64,000 nucleotides of DNA, taken from IMG/VR virus record IMGVR_UViG_3300042868_003730, positions 83,922 through 147,921 of that record; one strand, given 5' to 3'. This DNA is from a virus. Each line of letters opens with the position of its first letter. Position 1 is the first letter of the stretch. Shown here piece after piece: positions 58,804-64,000 of this stretch. A model generated the notes under the pieces. It was not told the DNA's origin and made no database searches. It saw nothing but the letters and a program-made list of their open reading frames with translations. The position numbers and the translations under genes were made by a program.

Positions 58804-59088
58804 ATGATTTTAGATCAAATTGAATTAGTACAGGATGCAGAACCAGACAAGATTAGACCGATTAGAATTATCGAAGGTGAATTTGAAGGTTTGGTAGTTA
58901 GGTTTGGGCGCGCATGGTTTCCAGAAACTGGGGAAAATAATCTTTCCTTTGAGATTGACATACTTGAGGGTACAATTGAGTCTGAGCAGGAACCTCGTTT
59001 ACACGATTTCCTTGGCCAGATCTTAATGGCATTTATCCAAGAAGAAATGAAACGCGAAGAAAGAAACAATGACAAATCTGAGAATTGA
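58804..59088 (+). CDS. Hypothetical protein at gp40 position
   Basis: Acidic protein of about 94 aa between the uvsX region and gp41. GAGG RBS. Confidence 0.5.
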   Translation: MILDQIELVQDAEPDKIRPIRIIEGEFEGLVVRFGRAWFPETGENNLSFEIDILEGTIESEQEPRLHDFLGQILMAFIQEEMKREERNNDKSEN

Positions 59089-60493
59089 AGAAACGATTCT
59101 ATCCAATTTATTGATTGATGAGGAATACTCACGTAAGGCTACGCCATTCCTCGATGCTGATTACTTTGCCGAAAAGGCAGAAAAGACTTTACTCATGGAG
59201 ATCAATGGATTCTTCATGAAGTATAACAAGTTGCCTACGAAAGAAATTATTCGTGTGCAACTTGCGCAGAGAACTGATCTGACTGATACTGATCTCAAGA
59301 ATGCCATTGAGATCGTTGATAACTTTACTGATGAGAAACCAACCAGTAAAGAGTGGCTGTTGGAACAGACTGAGAAGTTCTGTAAGGAAAAGAGTGTATA
59401 CAATGCTATCCTTCGCTCTATCAAGATTATTGATGGTAAGGATAAGGAACTGAACAAAGAAGGTATTCCGAAGATTCTTCAGGATGCTTTGGCTATTTCA
59501 TTCGATACTGCAGTTGGTCACTCATACCTTGAAGATGCAACTGCTCGTTATGAGTTCTATACTCGTAAGGAAGAAAAGGTCGCATTCGATCTGGAGATCC
59601 TTAACGATATCACCAAGGGTGGTCTGGCAAAGAAAACGCTGACTCTGTTGGCTGCTCAATCTGGTGGTGGTAAGAGTCTCGTTATGAGTCACTTCGCCGC
59701 TGCTGCTCTTCGTCAGGGTAAGAATGTTCTTTACATTACTCTGGAAATGTCCGAGGAAAGAATCGCTGAACGTATTGATGCAAACCTACTTGGTATTGAC
59801 ATTGATAAACTGGCTGATCTTTCCAAGGAAGAATTCGTCCAGAAGATTGCTACGATTAGTAAAAAGACTCAGGGCAAGCTGATCGTCAAGGAATATCCAA
59901 CTGGCTCGGCTCATTCGGGTCACTTCCGTGGGTTGCTTGAAGAGTTGAAGATCAAGAAAGACTTTAAGCCTGACTTCCTGATCGTGGATTATCTTGGTAT
60001 CTGTGCGTCCTCGCGTATGAAGATGGGTGGTAGTGTTAACAGTTATTCCTATATAAAGAGCATTGCTGAAGAGCTGCGTAGTCTGGCAGTTGAGTATGAT
60101 GTTCCATTGATCAGTGCTACTCAGGTCAATCGTAATGGCTTTGATAACTCGGATATTGAACTTACAGATACTTCTGAGTCAATGGGTCTGGTCCATACTG
60201 CGGACTTGATGCTTGCTTTGATTCGTACTGAGGAACTGGATGAGATCAATCAAATCCTGATCAAGCAGCTGAAGAATCGTTATGCTGATACTGCAATCAA
60301 TAAACGATTCGTCGTTGGTATCAATCGTTCCAGGATGAAGTTGTTTGATCTTGAGAAGTCTGCCCAGACATCTATTGCTACTGGCTCATCCTTTAGTCCG
60401 AAGGGTAAGATGAAGAAAGTTGAGGAGCCAGACGTTCCTCTGTATGATCGTTCGAAGCCAAGACCTACGGACTTCGGTGGGTTCAAATTCTAA
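59069..60493 (+). CDS. 41: Replicative helicase gp41
   Basis: IEETILSNL, AQSGGGKS, YITLEMSEE.IAERIDAN, KEYPT, VDYL, SATQVNR, QLKNRY. Confidence 0.95.
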   Translation: MTNLRIEETILSNLLIDEEYSRKATPFLDADYFAEKAEKTLLMEINGFFMKYNKLPTKEIIRVQLAQRTDLTDTDLKNAIEIVDNFTDEKPTSKEWLLEQTEKFCKEKSVYNAILRSIKIIDGKDKELNKEGIPKILQDALAISFDTAVGHSYLEDATARYEFYTRKEEKVAFDLEILNDITKGGLAKKTLTLLAAQSGGGKSLVMSHFAAAALRQGKNVLYITLEMSEERIAERIDANLLGIDIDKLADLSKEEFVQKIATISKKTQGKLIVKEYPTGSAHSGHFRGLLEELKIKKDFKPDFLIVDYLGICASSRMKMGGSVNSYSYIKSIAEELRSLAVEYDVPLISATQVNRNGFDNSDIELTDTSESMGLVHTADLMLALIRTEELDEINQILIKQLKNRYADTAINKRFVVGINRSRMKLFDLEKSAQTSIATGSSFSPKGKMKKVEEPDVPLYDRSKPRPTDFGGFKF

Positions 60494-60533
60494 AATATAT
60501 TTCAATTTCCCTGAAAAAACTCGTGCAATTACT

Positions 60534-60540
60534 CTAAATA
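60534..60540 (+). promoter_or_regulatory. Late promoter CTAAATA upstream of tRNA-operon leader
   Basis: Same motif as at the structural genes. An ATG lies 5 nt downstream, at the expected start site. Confidence 0.6.
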
Positions 60541-60544
60541 GATG

Positions 60545-60640
60545 ATGACCAAGAATTTACCAAAACCCTATTATGTAAGCGAAATTCTCGCTGGTGGAGC
60601 AACACACGAGAATGATGCGACGAAATTTGGTGCCATGTAG
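60545..60640 (+). CDS. Putative leaderless 31-aa attenuator leader peptide MTKNLPKPYYVSEILAGGATHENDATKFGAM
   Basis: Open frame from the ATG at the predicted start site to a TAG that lies within the antiterminator segment GTAGGGTT. Confidence 0.5.
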   Translation: MTKNLPKPYYVSEILAGGATHENDATKFGAM

Positions 60641-60658
60641 GGTTGGCTCTGATTAAAA

Positions 60659-60692
60659 ACAAAACCCTACTTCGGTAGGGTTTTGTCATTTT
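60659..60692 (+). terminator. Terminator / attenuator hairpin
   Basis: ACAAAACCCTAC-TTCG-GTAGGGTTTTGT followed by CATTTT. Confidence 0.8.
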
Positions 60693-60698
60693 GGGGAT

Positions 60699-60727
60699 TT
60701 TACTTTTATTCAAGTCTCAGGTATAAT
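60699..60727 (+). promoter_or_regulatory. Early promoter P1 of tRNA operon
   Basis: TTTACT-TTTATTCAAGTCTCAGG-TATAAT, same family as 45526 and 47657. Confidence 0.8.
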
Positions 60728-60781
60728 TTCTTTATGGGTTGAGTGAGGTAGGCGGTTCTGGTTAGTTTAGGTTTGAATCGC

Positions 60782-60810
60782 TTTACTTTTATTCAACTTA
60801 GCGGTATAAT
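60782..60810 (+). promoter_or_regulatory. Early promoter P2 of tRNA operon
   Basis: TTTACT-TTTATTCAACTTAGCGG-TATAAT. Confidence 0.8.
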
Positions 60811-60842
60811 ATCTTTATCGGTTAGTTGTTGAACTTGCCGAT

Positions 60843-60858
60843 TACTCTTTAAAAATTT
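60843..60858 (+). promoter_or_regulatory. rrn-type boxA antitermination element
   Basis: TACTCTTTAAAAATTT versus E. coli rrn boxA TGCTCTTTAACAATTT, about 25 nt after the P2 start and preceded by a hairpin. Confidence 0.6.
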
Positions 60859-60889
60859 GTTGTTTTATGGTTCCAGGGTTCTCCCTGGT

Positions 60890-60985
60890 GCCATATTGAA
60901 ATGCATTAGAAAACATAGATGCCTGTGGGTGAGAATCCTAGGCTGGGGTGCCTTCACCATATCCCGTAGTGCATTTCAATATGGT
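60890..60985 (+). ncRNA. Long-stem structured RNA element 1
   Basis: GCCATATTGAAATGCATTA...TAGTGCATTTCAATATGGT, about 19 bp with G-U pairs. Confidence 0.65.
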
Positions 60986-60988
60986 GAC

Positions 60989-61070
60989 ATCATAGTGAAG
61001 CATAGCACTTCACTGATAAGGAAGTCTGGTCGGCTGTATTCAACTGGCTAGTGCTATGCTTCACTATGAT
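60989..61070 (+). ncRNA. Long-stem structured RNA element 2
   Basis: Perfect 21-bp inverted repeat ATCATAGTGAAGCATAGCACT / AGTGCTATGCTTCACTATGAT. Confidence 0.65.
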
Positions 61071-61074
61071 ATTT

Positions 61075-61149
61075 GCTCGATTCGTCTATTGGTTAGGACT
61101 CCAGGTTTTCATCCTGGCAAGAGGAGTTCGACTCTCCTATCGAGTACCA
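61075..61149 (+). tRNA. tRNA-Glu(TTC)
   Basis: Cloverleaf, anticodon arm CCAGG-TT-TTC-AT-CCTGG, encoded CCA. Confidence 0.92.
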
Positions 61150-61234
61150 TAATAAGTGTGTGATAAGACGGTGCGTGATTGCCAGTATCGTAACTTCGAG
61201 AGCTCGTCGGTCGAGGGCACACTTATTATGGTAC
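61144..61234 (+). ncRNA. Long-stem structured RNA element 3 (overlaps tRNA-Glu 3' end)
   Basis: Perfect 17-bp inverted repeat GTACCATAATAAGTGTG / CACACTTATTATGGTAC. Confidence 0.65.
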
Positions 61235-61329
61235 CATATTGAAGCGCATTACGACTGACCAACTTCGGGTGTGGTTAGTTCCAGAAATAGGTCGTAATTG
61301 ATTTTACGGGCAGTGTGTTTCAATATGGT
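61233..61329 (+). ncRNA. Long-stem structured RNA element 4
   Basis: ACCATATTGAAGCGCATT...AGTGTGTTTCAATATGGT with G-U pairs. Internal UUCG hairpin. Confidence 0.65.
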
Positions 61330-61421
61330 GTGTTTCCAGTTTCACCAATCTCTCAGTTAAAAGCTGTTGATGAGTAAAGGGTGCGAGAAAATCAAATCCT
61401 TCTGGGCAGAACATGCCGCCA
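61327..61421 (+). ncRNA. Non-tRNA structured RNA with acceptor-like stem ending GCCA
   Basis: GGTGTGTTT pairs with GAACATGCC, followed by GCCA. No cloverleaf. Confidence 0.4.
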
Positions 61422-61512
61422 TATTGAAGTGCATTCAAGCAATGACAGGAGTGGTAGCCCTGTATCTTGCTGGACTAAAGACCTACTACGTCTGAGTGCA
61501 TTTCAATATGGT
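61418..61512 (+). ncRNA. Long-stem structured RNA element 5
   Basis: GCCATATTGAAGTGCATTCA...TGAGTGCATTTCAATATGGT, 20 bp with G-U pairs. Confidence 0.65.
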
Positions 61513-61519
61513 AGACAAC

Positions 61520-61595
61520 GGGACGGTAGCTCAGTTGGTAGAGCAGCGGACTTTTAATCCGTAGGTCGTGGGTTCGAGTCCCGCTCGTCCCACCA
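61520..61595 (+). tRNA. tRNA-Lys(TTT)
   Basis: Canonical 76-nt cloverleaf, GCGGA-CT-TTT-AA-TCCGT, CCA. Confidence 0.95.
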
Positions 61596-61604
61596 AAGAA
61601 TAAT

Positions 61605-61681
61605 GCGGAAGTGACGCAATTGGTAGACGTGCTTGCCTTAGAAGCAAGATTCTGAGAGTTCGAGTCTCTCCTTCCGCACCA
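61605..61681 (+). tRNA. tRNA-Leu(TAG), short variable loop
   Basis: CTTGC-CT-TAG-AA-GCAAG, 77 nt, CCA. Confidence 0.88.
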
Positions 61682-61687
61682 ATTTAT

Positions 61688-61780
61688 GGGTGTTTTGATG
61701 CTATGGCGTGTGCATCCCGAGACTGTAAATCTCGTCCTATTAGGTAAACATTCCTGGTTCGAATCCAGGAACACCCACCA
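61688..61780 (+). tRNA. tRNA-Tyr(GTA), atypical D arm
   Basis: GGGTGTT/AACACCC acceptor, CGAGA-CT-GTA-AA-TCTCG, long variable arm, CCA. Confidence 0.85.
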
Positions 61781-61788
61781 AGATATAT

Positions 61789-61864
61789 TCCTCGATAGCT
61801 CAGTTGGTAGAGTGCCGGACTGTTAATCCGTTGGTCCCTGGTTCGAGCCCAGGTCGAGGAGCCA
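61789..61864 (+). tRNA. tRNA-Asn(GTT)
   Basis: 76-nt cloverleaf, CGGA-CT-GTT-AA-TCCG, GCCA. Confidence 0.93.
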
Positions 61865-61868
61865 TTTA

Positions 61869-61951
61869 GCGAGAGTGGTGGAATGGTAGACACAGCAGAC
61901 TTAAAATCTGCCGCTCAATGCGTACGGGTTCGAGTCCCGTCTCTCGCACCA
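61869..61951 (+). tRNA. tRNA-Leu(TAA)
   Basis: GCAGA-CT-TAA-AA-TCTGC, variable arm, CCA. Confidence 0.93.
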
Positions 61952-61954
61952 AGT

Positions 61955-62035
61955 TTTAGGTGATGACCCAAGCGTAAAGTTCCGGAACTGAGAAGCTAAG
62001 AAGCGTAAGTGTACAGCTGGTTTCGTACCACCTAA
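61955..62035 (+). ncRNA. Structured spacer RNA
   Basis: Closed by TTAGGTG / CACCTAA. Contains AAGCGTAA twice. Confidence 0.4.
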
Positions 62036-62038
62036 TTT

Positions 62039-62115
62039 GCGACCGTAGCTCAGATGGATAGAGCAGCGGATTTCTACTCCGTAGGTCAGCGGTTCGAATC
62101 CGTTCGGTCGCACCA
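62039..62115 (+). tRNA. tRNA-Arg(TCT)
   Basis: GCGGA-TT-TCT-AC-TCCGT, 77 nt, CCA. Confidence 0.93.
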
Positions 62116-62121
62116 GATTTT

Positions 62122-62225
62122 TAAGACACGGATACGTAGCACCTCCCTTTCACGGAGATGTATGCTCGTGGCAATTCTATGTAATTCCGTGACTGACAGG
62201 AAAGAACCCATATACTGTCAACTTA
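62122..62225 (+). ncRNA. Structured spacer RNA (multi-stem)
   Basis: CACGGA/TCCGTG and TGACAG/CTGTCA stems, closed by TAAG/CTTA. Confidence 0.4.
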
Positions 62226-62229
62226 TTTT

Positions 62230-62304
62230 GGATCTAAAGTGTTCATGGACGCACACCTCTCTGTCTAAGAGGAAGAAGGAGATCGTTACTCCTTAGATCC
62301 GCCA
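62230..62304 (+). tRNA. tRNA-Asp(GTC), non-canonical
   Basis: GGATCTA/TAGATCC acceptor plus GCCA. CCTCT-CT-GTC-TA-AGAGG. A8/U14 and T-loop ATCGTTA. Confidence 0.8.
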
Positions 62305-62391
62305 TGATTAGGGTTTTCCTAAGTGAGAGAAAGGAGAATAAGTCTAAGTGTAATCACTGTAATAAAAATGTAATATTTTGAATGTTTTAGA

Positions 62392-62398
62392 CTAAATA
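62392..62398 (+). promoter_or_regulatory. Late promoter CTAAATA upstream of the monooxygenase gene
   Basis: Same motif as at gp13, gp18, gp19 and gp22. Followed by a 5' hairpin and an AAGGAG RBS. Confidence 0.6.
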
Positions 62399-62480
62399 CT
62401 TGTGGTGGTTGTATTAGCAGTTTCAATCCACTACGTCTCAATTTGTTAAACCGACATTAAAGGTCAAGAAGGAGTACTGA

Positions 62481-64000
62481 ATGTCAGAATTAACGCTAAA
62501 CAAAATCACCTCTCAAAAAGGTATCCCAATCGCCGAGGCAACTCGTCGCATCGCTGATCTCGGCTGGCAACCTAGCTATGTCCAGGAAGCATCAACTTTC
62601 CCTACCGACTATAAGATCGGAAAAGCACCTCGTGACCCAATGAAGCAAGTGCTGCGTTCCTACTTCCCAATGCAGGAAGAAAAGGACAGCCGTGTTTATG
62701 GTGCACTTGATGCCGCACTTCGCGGTGATATGTTCCGCAATACCCAGCCACGCTGGATCGAATGGATGAAGTTGTTCCTGGCTATCATCCCTTTCCCAGA
62801 AATTTCGGCTGCTCGCTCGATGGCAATGGTTGCTCGTCTAGCCCCAGGTGAAGAACTTCGCACTGGTTTCACCATGCAAATGGTTGACGAGTTCCGTCAC
62901 TCCACGATTCAGATGAACCTGAAGAAGTGGTATATGGAAAACTACATTGATCCAGCTGGTTTCGATATCACTGAGAAGGCATTCGGTCAATGCTATGCTA
63001 CGACTATTGGTCGTCAATTCGGTGAAGGTTTCCTGACTGGTGACTCGATCACTGCAGCAAACATCTATCTGACTGTTGTTGCTGAGACTGGCTTCACCAA
63101 CACGCTATTCGTTGCTATGCCTTCGGAAGCCGCTCGTAATGGTGACTACGCTTTGTCAACTGTATTCCTGTCGGTTCAATCTGACGAATCGCGACACATT
63201 GGCAATGGACACTCTCTTTTGATGTCCATCGTCAATGACCCAAGCAACCACCTTTTGCTCGAGCGTGATCTACGTTACGCATTCTGGCAAAACCATGCCA
63301 TCGTTGATGCTGCTATCGGTACTATCATTGAGTATGGTACGACTGACCGTGATAAGAACAAGGAGTCCTACTCTGAGTTGTGGCACCGTTGGATCTATGA
63401 GGACTACTATCGCAGCTATATGCTGCCTCTGGAAAAGTATGGTATCAAGATTCACCACGATGATGTTGGTGCTGCTTGGGATCGTATTGTTAAGAAGAAC
63501 TACGTTCACAAGACGGCTCAGTTCTTCTCAGTTGGTTGGCCTGTCAACTTCTGGCGCATCGAAGCCCAGACAGAAAAAGACTTCGAGTGGTTTGAACATA
63601 AGTATCCGGGCTGGTACGCTGAATTCGGCGACTACTGGAAGTGGTACGAAAAGCTGAGCCACCCTGGTCAGACCAACGTGCTGTTCAATCAGGAAGTTGG
63701 CTACTCGTATCCACATCGATGCTGGAGCTGCATGGTTCCTTGCTTGATTCGTGAAGACTTTGTCTATGATGAAGTTGAAGGCGAAGTGTTTACATACTGC
63801 TCGGAAGTTTGCCGTTGGACCCACAAGGTCGCTTTCTCCGGTGAATATGAAGGTCGTGCTACTCCAGCAATGGGTCGCTTTAGCGGTAAGCGCGAGTGGG
63901 AAGAGTGCTATGATGGTTGGGATCTAGCTGATGCTATTAAGGATCTAGGTTTTGTTCGTCCTGATGGCAAGACACTGATTCAGCAGCCTCACCTGCGCTT
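62481..64000 (+). CDS. prmA: Soluble di-iron monooxygenase hydroxylase alpha subunit, group 5 (propane monooxygenase PrmA-like), 3'-truncated by window
   Basis: Not in the ORF track because there is no stop before the window end. Translates to MSELTLNKITSQKGI...KQVLRSYFPMQEEKD...IIPFPEISAARSM...QMVDEFRHSTIQMNLKK...TVVAETGFTNTLFVAMP...SVQSDESRHIGNG...HRCWSCMVPC...YCSEVC...GFVRPDGKTLIQQPHL. Two DExRH di-iron motifs lie 99 residues apart. Confidence 0.93.
   Translation, partial: MSELTLNKITSQKGIPIAEATRRIADLGWQPSYVQEASTFPTDYKIGKAPRDPMKQVLRSYFPMQEEKDSRVYGALDAALRGDMFRNTQPRWIEWMKLFLAIIPFPEISAARSMAMVARLAPGEELRTGFTMQMVDEFRHSTIQMNLKKWYMENYIDPAGFDITEKAFGQCYATTIGRQFGEGFLTGDSITAANIYLTVVAETGFTNTLFVAMPSEAARNGDYALSTVFLSVQSDESRHIGNGHSLLMSIVNDPSNHLLLERDLRYAFWQNHAIVDAAIGTIIEYGTTDRDKNKESYSELWHRWIYEDYYRSYMLPLEKYGIKIHHDDVGAAWDRIVKKNYVHKTAQFFSVGWPVNFWRIEAQTEKDFEWFEHKYPGWYAEFGDYWKWYEKLSHPGQTNVLFNQEVGYSYPHRCWSCMVPCLIREDFVYDEVEGEVFTYCSEVCRWTHKVAFSGEYEGRATPAMGRFSGKREWEECYDGWDLADAIKDLGFVRPDGKTLIQQPHLR

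Follow-up and report, generated by a model that had tools for sequence, protein, structure and literature searches.

A putative ribosome-operated transcription attenuator on a late transcript preceding the tRNA array of a T4-like phage

Why phages carry tRNA genes, and how such genes are controlled, is an active question, the roles proposed for them being codon compensation and escape from tRNA-targeting defences. The locus considered here poses the question of control in specific terms: a short promoter-to-terminator unit lies between the gene for a replicative helicase and a block of eight tRNA genes (Table 1), and was originally predicted to be a tRNA-sensing leader-peptide attenuator controlling the tRNA operon. 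That prediction invoked a leader open reading frame (ORF) and four mutually exclusive segments of RNA, of which segments 3 and 4 would form a terminator (3:4), segments 2 and 3 an antiterminator (2:3), and segments 1 and 2 an anti-antiterminator (1:2). The window, by which is meant the whole 64,000-nucleotide stretch of DNA analysed, forms the final 64 kb of an IMG/VR virus record that is 147.9 kb long and bears terminal repeats. The phage is a T4-like lake myovirus with 19 tRNAs in its whole genome; it encodes UvsX and a gp41-type helicase, and has genes for sheath, tube, major head, scaffold and fibre. All coordinates originally assigned to the box, ATG, ORF and segments 1-4 proved correct when checked against the sequence.

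Scanning positions 60300-62500 with Rfam returned tRNAs only, plus sub-threshold noise across the element, and no Rfam leader or attenuator family was matched at 60534-60692 (istR scored 20.5 bits against 45, with BSnc120 and mir-454 far under threshold). In blastn comparisons with GenBank phages, similarity ended within gp41, the block being common to no cultured phage, and no published description of such control of phage tRNA genes was found in the literature.

Table 1. Features of the element and its surroundings (positions in the window).
Feature	Positions	Strand	Remarks
gp41-type DnaB-like replicative helicase gene	59069-60493	+	ORF; DnaB_C/AAA_25 Pfam matches on identical product; homologues; upstream neighbour (stop 60493)
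T4-type late promoter box CTAAATA (predicted)	60534-60540	+	Copies before late genes; T4 position rule
Leader ORF, probably leaderless (31 codons + TAG)	60545-60640	+	In-frame ATG also at 60542; TAG at 60638-60640
Mid-ORF hairpin	60579-60618	+	Putative; candidate RNA polymerase pause/timing hairpin
Segment 2, antiterminator 5' strand	60637-60644	+	Overlaps TAG stop; 8 bp with segment 3
Segment 3, terminator 5' arm	60661-60670	+	Common to both alternative helices
Segment 4 (3' arm, 60675-60684) and T-rich tail	60675-60692	+	Intrinsic terminator
Early (sigma-70-like) promoter P1	60699-60727	+	10/12 consensus match; downstream of terminator
Early promoter P2, tandem copy	60782-60810	+	Sole copy kept in blockless relatives
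Eight tRNA genes (Glu, Lys, Leu, Tyr, Asn, Leu, Arg, Asp)	61075-62304	+	ARAGORN and Rfam; downstream target region

The same architecture was found in seven distinct variants, not fully independent of one another, from five diverged lineages whose gp41 proteins are 61-100% identical; these variants are designated window/L109, L235, L002, L194, L184, L112 and L006. The close relatives compared were seven contigs from IMG/VR, JGI and ENA with helicase proteins 98-99% identical, and the diverged set consisted of contigs fetched for helicase proteins 61-88% identical, the downstream DNA of which was then read. L109 is identical to the window, L235 and L236 differ from it at a few positions, and L002, which is 84% identical across the block, retains the ORF in frame despite a 3-nt deletion, together with a 7-bp 2:3 helix, and has segment 1 destroyed. 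The diverged lineages are represented by the L194 group (gp41 88% identical), L184/L196/L197 (75%), L006/L111 (62%) and L112 (61%), the last of which has CTATATA as its late box where the others have CTAAATA. A single layout is shared by these diverged lineages: the late box is followed after exactly 5 nt by the ATG of an ORF of 21-37 codons, the stop codon of which lies on segment 2, and thereafter by a terminator, one or more early promoters and, where the contig reaches that far, structured RNAs and tRNAs. The element stands upstream of a tRNA array in the window, L002, L194 and L006; in the other variants the contig stops short of any tRNA gene.

When 2.9 Mb of fetched related loci were scanned on both strands for the combination of box, ATG, short ORF and terminator, only these units were recovered, all of them at the same locus. 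A gp41-based metagenome scan added one close relative devoid of the block, together with the diverged L184, L112 and L111. The exact terminator-plus-tail pattern gave no matches in metagenome contigs, and the structural pattern (segment 2, gap, hairpin) gave, besides L002, four unrelated loci only in IMG/VR. In three lineages gp41 and the element are separated by other genes. A small, conserved membrane protein of some 90 amino acids, with an invariant RSTRRKIV stretch, is encoded between helicase and element at L184:360-629, L006:4395-4673 and L112:3896-4186, and is absent from the window; a search conducted with this small membrane ORF, which precedes the element in three lineages, yielded no new variants.

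The unit opens with a predicted promoter of T4 late type: an AT-rich TATAAATA-type box is situated about one helical turn before the predicted start, and the same box stands before late genes. Sixteen copies of CTAAATA occur in the window, all except one on the + strand, and seven of them lie 22-51 nt before late-region genes (sheath, tube, scaffold, head-tail adaptor and tail fibre among them), each of which has a clear Shine-Dalgarno site; the leader ORF is without one. Since the T4 late box covers -13 to -6 (PMC2988020), the start site is expected 6 nt past the box. The box-to-ATG spacing is 4 nt in the window group and 5 nt in the four other lineages, and by the T4 rule the A of the leader ATG consequently falls at +1 or -1, so that the placing of the ATG at or next to the transcription start, as originally predicted, is upheld by a spacing conserved in relatives. 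Taken together, the fixed spacing of 4-5 nt and the missing Shine-Dalgarno site point to a probably leaderless mRNA, on which transcription would start at or next to the AUG and translation of the leader ORF would follow. The window group has 4 rather than 5 nt, and initiation one base later could there miss the AUG.

The short leader ORF likewise proved to be conserved, as a frame and not as a product. In all five lineages the ATG frame is open and both other frames contain 1-4 stops; the chance of an open frame ranges from 0.14 to 0.34 per lineage, giving a joint chance of 2.6e-4, which becomes about 1e-6 (approximately 240-fold lower) if an assumed 1-in-3 chance per lineage of a same-frame stop at segment 2 is included. 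Comparison of the window with L002 gave a leader dN/dS of about 0.9, with 9, 8 and 6 differences at the three successive codon positions, and all three substitutions within the ORF that separate the window from L235 are non-synonymous. Leader peptides of different lineages cannot be aligned past their first residues. Judged from the sequences, a pattern of this kind marks an ORF for which translation would matter and the product would not.

One short feature of the peptides does recur: five of the six share an N-terminal pattern M-T/N-K...K-P, which may be an aid to leaderless initiation or an early slow step. The K-P pair falls within the first eight residues of otherwise unrelated leader peptides (window 60545-60570, and from L194:4480, L184:666 and L112:4494 onwards), and the same pattern is visible in the nucleotides as an A-rich start followed by AAACC. 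Further into the ORF, each variant is predicted to form a central hairpin, unrelated in sequence from one variant to another (z -1.8 to -2.3; 2-10 of 200 shuffles fold as well). These hairpins do not involve segment 2, and may serve in the timing of polymerase and ribosome. Pairing of the 5' AUG region with spacer or tail was not significant (P 0.09-1.0).

At the distal end of the unit, the competition originally proposed between a 2:3 antiterminator and a 3:4 terminator was sustained by both energetics and covariation. The terminator hairpin of the window lies 167 nt past the gp41 stop and has a stem of 10-12 bp, a UUCG loop and a predicted energy of -13.6 kcal/mol; across all variants the terminators have stems of 9-13 bp, a GC-rich core and a T tract, with energies of -12.1 to -17.2 kcal/mol, and are kept in relatives with compensatory changes. 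The 154-nt stretch as a whole folds better than its shuffles (z = -3.9). As regards the 8-bp 2:3 helix of the window, none of 2000 dinucleotide shuffles of the last 45 nt reached it, and 0.2% did so anywhere in the leader. Moreover, among 24 terminator-like hairpins detected genome-wide, an upstream complement of at least 7 nt was present at the element only, the other 23 having complements of 2-6 nt.

Pairs in the relatives were tabulated by script, MAFFT alignments of the 3' parts having put homologous pairs in different columns on account of variable loops and spacers. In all seven variants segment 2 co-varies with segment 3, the paired lengths being 8 in window/L109, 8 in L235, 7 in L002, 6 in L194, 12 in L184, 8 in L112, and 4+4 bp in L006. 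L194 and L184 each carry one double change from T-A to C-G in the 2:3/terminator stem, and L112 and L006 have wholly different stems in which segment 2 still tracks segment 3. The case of L194 is instructive in that segment 2 is there a perfect complement of segment 3, with which segment 4 pairs by way of a G-U wobble; because segment 2 fits segment 3 better than segment 4 does, it cannot be merely a duplicated 3' arm. In shuffling tests of 2:3, five variants had P values no higher than 0.004; L194 had 0.04 and L006 0.09.

A comparison of the fold energies of the alternative structures, proposed at the outset as a check, gave -9.6 to -17.4 kcal/mol for the local 2:3 hairpins, comparable with the values already quoted for the terminators. 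When the RNA was made to end at segment 3, 2:3 formed part of the minimum-energy fold in six of the seven variants, L235 preferring another hairpin. The full-length transcript folds into 3:4, and since 3:4 wins in the complete transcript, 2:3 can matter only during transcription. On the predicted pairings 2:3 is short in L194, interrupted in L006, and outcompeted in the nascent fold of L235. The stop codon of every variant falls on segment 2, overlapping the 5' end of the segment in six of them and the 3' end in L006; the 3' end of segment 3 follows 32-46 nt later.

The proposed anti-antiterminator and the proposed match between leader codons and downstream tRNAs were not borne out. A duplex at least as good as 1:2 arises in 30% of shuffles, and 1:2 is absent in the diverged variants. 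Segment 1 (60564-60571, + strand), the counterpart of which is missing in L002, L194 and L184 (P 0.67-0.96), is accordingly regarded as a chance match and not as part of the element, so that the conservation expected in relatives held for the short ORF and segment 2 and failed for segment 1. Codons read by the eight downstream tRNAs account for 11 of the 31 in the window leader (35%) against 33.6% genome-wide (P = 0.48), and for 22-41% in four variants against the same background (P 0.25-0.96). If all 19 phage tRNAs are considered, the corresponding values are 71% for the window leader and 59-77% for four variants, with a background of 65%.

A group of close relatives (L001, L003-L005, L110 and L229-L234) lacks the entire block, some 285 bp in length: the late box there overlaps the stop codon of the helicase gene, and directly after it come a single early promoter, a copy of P2, and the tRNA region. 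This blockless type was the most often recovered, its gp41 being present on 22 contigs. Since the closest and most abundant relatives are without it, the block is dispensable; and since those relatives keep the late box directly before the tRNA region, its late transcription seems to be the purpose that is conserved. These comparisons suggest that the block serves as an optional governor and that one abundant lineage has lost it recently.

The extent of any control is further limited by the two early promoters listed in Table 1, which belong to a motif of about 40 nt with a conserved upstream part that recurs at no fewer than 12 other genome sites, mostly in the early region. Because P1 and P2 lie between the terminator and the tRNAs, only transcription from the late promoter, or read-through from upstream, would be gated, and most tRNA synthesis may bypass the element by way of P1 and P2. 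To describe the element as controlling the tRNA operon was therefore an overstatement: late and upstream transcripts could be gated by it, but early promoters lie past the terminator and blockless relatives dispense with it altogether. The likeness to trp and his attenuators is similarly partial, holding for the terminator, the 2:3 pairing and the placement of the stop codon, but not for 1:2, cognate codons or a role as sole gate. A terminator-plus-early-promoter pattern was also encountered at 28 loci in related phages (L198-L223), at other genes and without segment 2 or a leader ORF. In this module, seen at window 60661-60727 and in L198-L223, the stem sequence is nearly invariant and the loops vary; it occurs once only in the window's genome.

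Several other observations were made in the tRNA region. Between the early promoters and the tRNAs, window 60860-61520 contains a succession of hairpins with long stems, each about 80-130 nt in length, several with near-identical arms; the same arms enclose tRNA-like T-arm sequences in L001:4530-4790 and L194:4960-5060, and ARAGORN and Rfam call none of these structures. An ORF of more than 506 amino acids, preceded by a CTAAATA box and running off the contig end (window 62481-63998), is inserted in the tRNA array, and has the look of a soluble di-iron monooxygenase alpha-subunit, judged from translation only. L001 and L002 have further tRNA genes where the window has this ORF, the remaining tRNAs of the window's genome being located at the start of the record. 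On the L002 contig, a copy (82% identical) of the roughly 50 nt that precede the late box recurs past the last tRNA gene (L089:4907-4956 versus window 60491-60539), this copy ending in CTAAATA and having after it an ordinary gene with a Shine-Dalgarno site; such direct repeats of the late-promoter region bracket the tRNA array and could drive its gain or loss. ARAGORN identified a tmRNA-like gene (permuted form, with tag peptide) in the extended tRNA region (G000:C1:7458-7825) and in a close relative (L005:6884-7363). Finally, a 231-aa ORF after the first tRNAs of L194 (L194:5532-6227) gave a faint Pfam match to SegE-like GIY-YIG homing endonucleases which, if real, fits the region as an insertion/deletion hot spot.

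On balance it appears probable that the element is a ribosome-mediated, leader-peptide type of transcription attenuator, trp-like but pared down to three segments, with no anti-antiterminator, that senses general translation. According to this mechanism, the late promoter would start the RNA at or next to the AUG, thereby generating a leaderless mRNA, and the ORF of 21-37 codons would be translated into a product that is itself irrelevant. The stop codon overlaps segment 2, which would be able to pair with segment 3. A ribosome positioned at the last codons or the stop as segment 3 emerges would cover segment 2, allowing 3:4 to form and late transcription to end at about 60692; a lagging, stalled or unloaded ribosome would permit 2:3 to form first, with resultant read-through into the structured-RNA and tRNA region. 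That relatives keep the layout with matching base changes argues that late read-through is probably set by how well ribosomes translate, and the lack of both a conserved 1:2 and a regulatory codon run argues for a sensor of general translation rather than of one amino acid. It also follows that the off state would need efficient leaderless initiation, because without 1:2 untranslated transcripts should read through. We infer both the direction of the response and its physiological signal, for which the general rate of elongation, the supply of tRNA and the capacity for leaderless initiation may be candidates.

A more specific proposition, put forward tentatively as possible rather than probable, is that a freshwater T4-like clade deploys the leaderless leader as a 'test ORF', a sensor of general translation capacity through which ribosome lag promotes late read-through into the phage's own tRNA and small-RNA array. 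If true, ribosome lag arising from tRNA shortage, a tRNA-cleaving defence or ribosome damage would exert a homeostatic feedback on the decoding machinery.

Closest to the preferred reading is the narrower claim of the original prediction, in which the attenuator is a feedback sensor of tRNA supply, and stalling on codons of the downstream phage tRNAs, for example after cleavage by an anticodon nuclease of the host, would raise the late transcription of those tRNAs. Phage tRNAs are indeed known to counter tRNA-targeting defences (PMC10264068, PMC11464382), the leader has a mixed codon set, the element precedes a tRNA array in the four variants named above, and a blockless relative keeps its late box before the array. 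It is nonetheless considered unlikely, since phage-tRNA codons occur in the leaders at background frequency, segment 1, at which the 'sensor codons' had been placed, is not conserved, and the downstream early promoters supply tRNAs independently. Were the unit instead a small gene expressed late, or a short late mRNA furnished with a terminator of its own, that encodes a fast-evolving micro-protein, and were 2:3 to serve 3'-end structure, mRNA stability or the like, then the maintained ORF, its recurrent N-terminal pattern and the provision of both promoter and terminator would all be accounted for. However, a dN/dS close to 0.9 and peptides unalignable between lineages past the first residues sit poorly with a selected product, 2:3 would be absent from the mature RNA, in which 3:4 wins, and a plain gene needs no conserved overlap between stop codon and segment 2; this explanation is judged improbable.

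The competition between 2:3 and 3:4 is in itself no proof of a role for the ribosome, and the choice might instead be set by a trans-acting factor, the unit being a late RNA of non-coding type, or an antiterminator that depends on a protein or small-molecule factor, with an incidental ORF. The reuse of the stem sequence in terminator-plus-early-promoter modules at many related-phage loci could hint at a sequence-specific factor, but those other modules are without segment 2, no Rfam family was matched, and an incidental ORF would hardly be the sole open ATG frame in five lineages, at a fixed spacing from the box and with its stop always on segment 2, so that such an arrangement seems very improbable. 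Still less credence is given to a plain terminator of the gp41 transcription unit in which ORF and repeated arm are coincidental. The hairpin is an ordinary intrinsic one at a short distance from the gp41 stop, and in related phages other genes too end in this terminator-plus-promoter module. Set against this are the conservation of architecture, frame and covariation in five lineages, an upstream complement unique among the hairpins of the genome, and the genes that separate gp41 from the element in three lineages, which together make coincidence extremely improbable.

A conserved ribosome-operated switch before a phage tRNA array, should the preferred reading of an attenuator responsive to general translation be correct, would be the first regulatory logic to have been described for arrays of this kind, and would exemplify classical attenuation on a leaderless T4-type late mRNA in which neither an amino-acid-specific codon run nor 1:2 is deployed. 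The natural variants constitute ready-made compensatory mutants and the blockless relatives natural deletions.

Comparison with known systems places the element between several of them. It resembles the leader-peptide attenuators of enterobacteria (trpL, hisL, pheL, thrL and ilv) in having a short leader ORF, a stop codon at segment 2 and a choice between 2:3 and 3:4, with similar spacing and relative helix energies. Unlike them, it is without a conserved 1:2 and a run of codons for a single amino acid, begins at a late promoter of T4 type with neither a 5' UTR nor a Shine-Dalgarno site, and is followed by phage tRNAs and structured RNAs rather than biosynthetic enzymes as targets, with independent promoters between terminator and targets. 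A response to general rather than amino-acid-specific conditions is precedented by BmrB-bmrCD of Bacillus subtilis, for which translation of the leader is required and which responds to general translation impairment (PMC4191407); there too the leader ORF contains or overlaps alternative stem-loops and an intrinsic terminator, the equivalent response of the present element being a proposal. BmrB-bmrCD differs in being bacterial and antibiotic-induced, and in having a normal ribosome-binding site and a transporter as its target.

The mycobacterial polycysteine sORFs, which are leaderless, sense cysteine via runs of Cys codons and unmask the following gene's ribosome-binding site (10.1101/834739), likewise place a sensory ORF at the 5' end of the transcript and let ribosome position select the RNA structure, as is proposed for the element. 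They act on translation, whereas the output of the element is an intrinsic terminator and it contains no codon run. With the late transcription units of T4, dependent on gp55, gp33 and gp45 (PMC2988020), the element has in common a box of the same type and position, used before phage structural genes; yet, unlike the ordinary late genes of this phage, with their 5' UTRs of 22-51 nt and Shine-Dalgarno sites, it has its start codon at the predicted start site, and the unit ends after about 145 nt.
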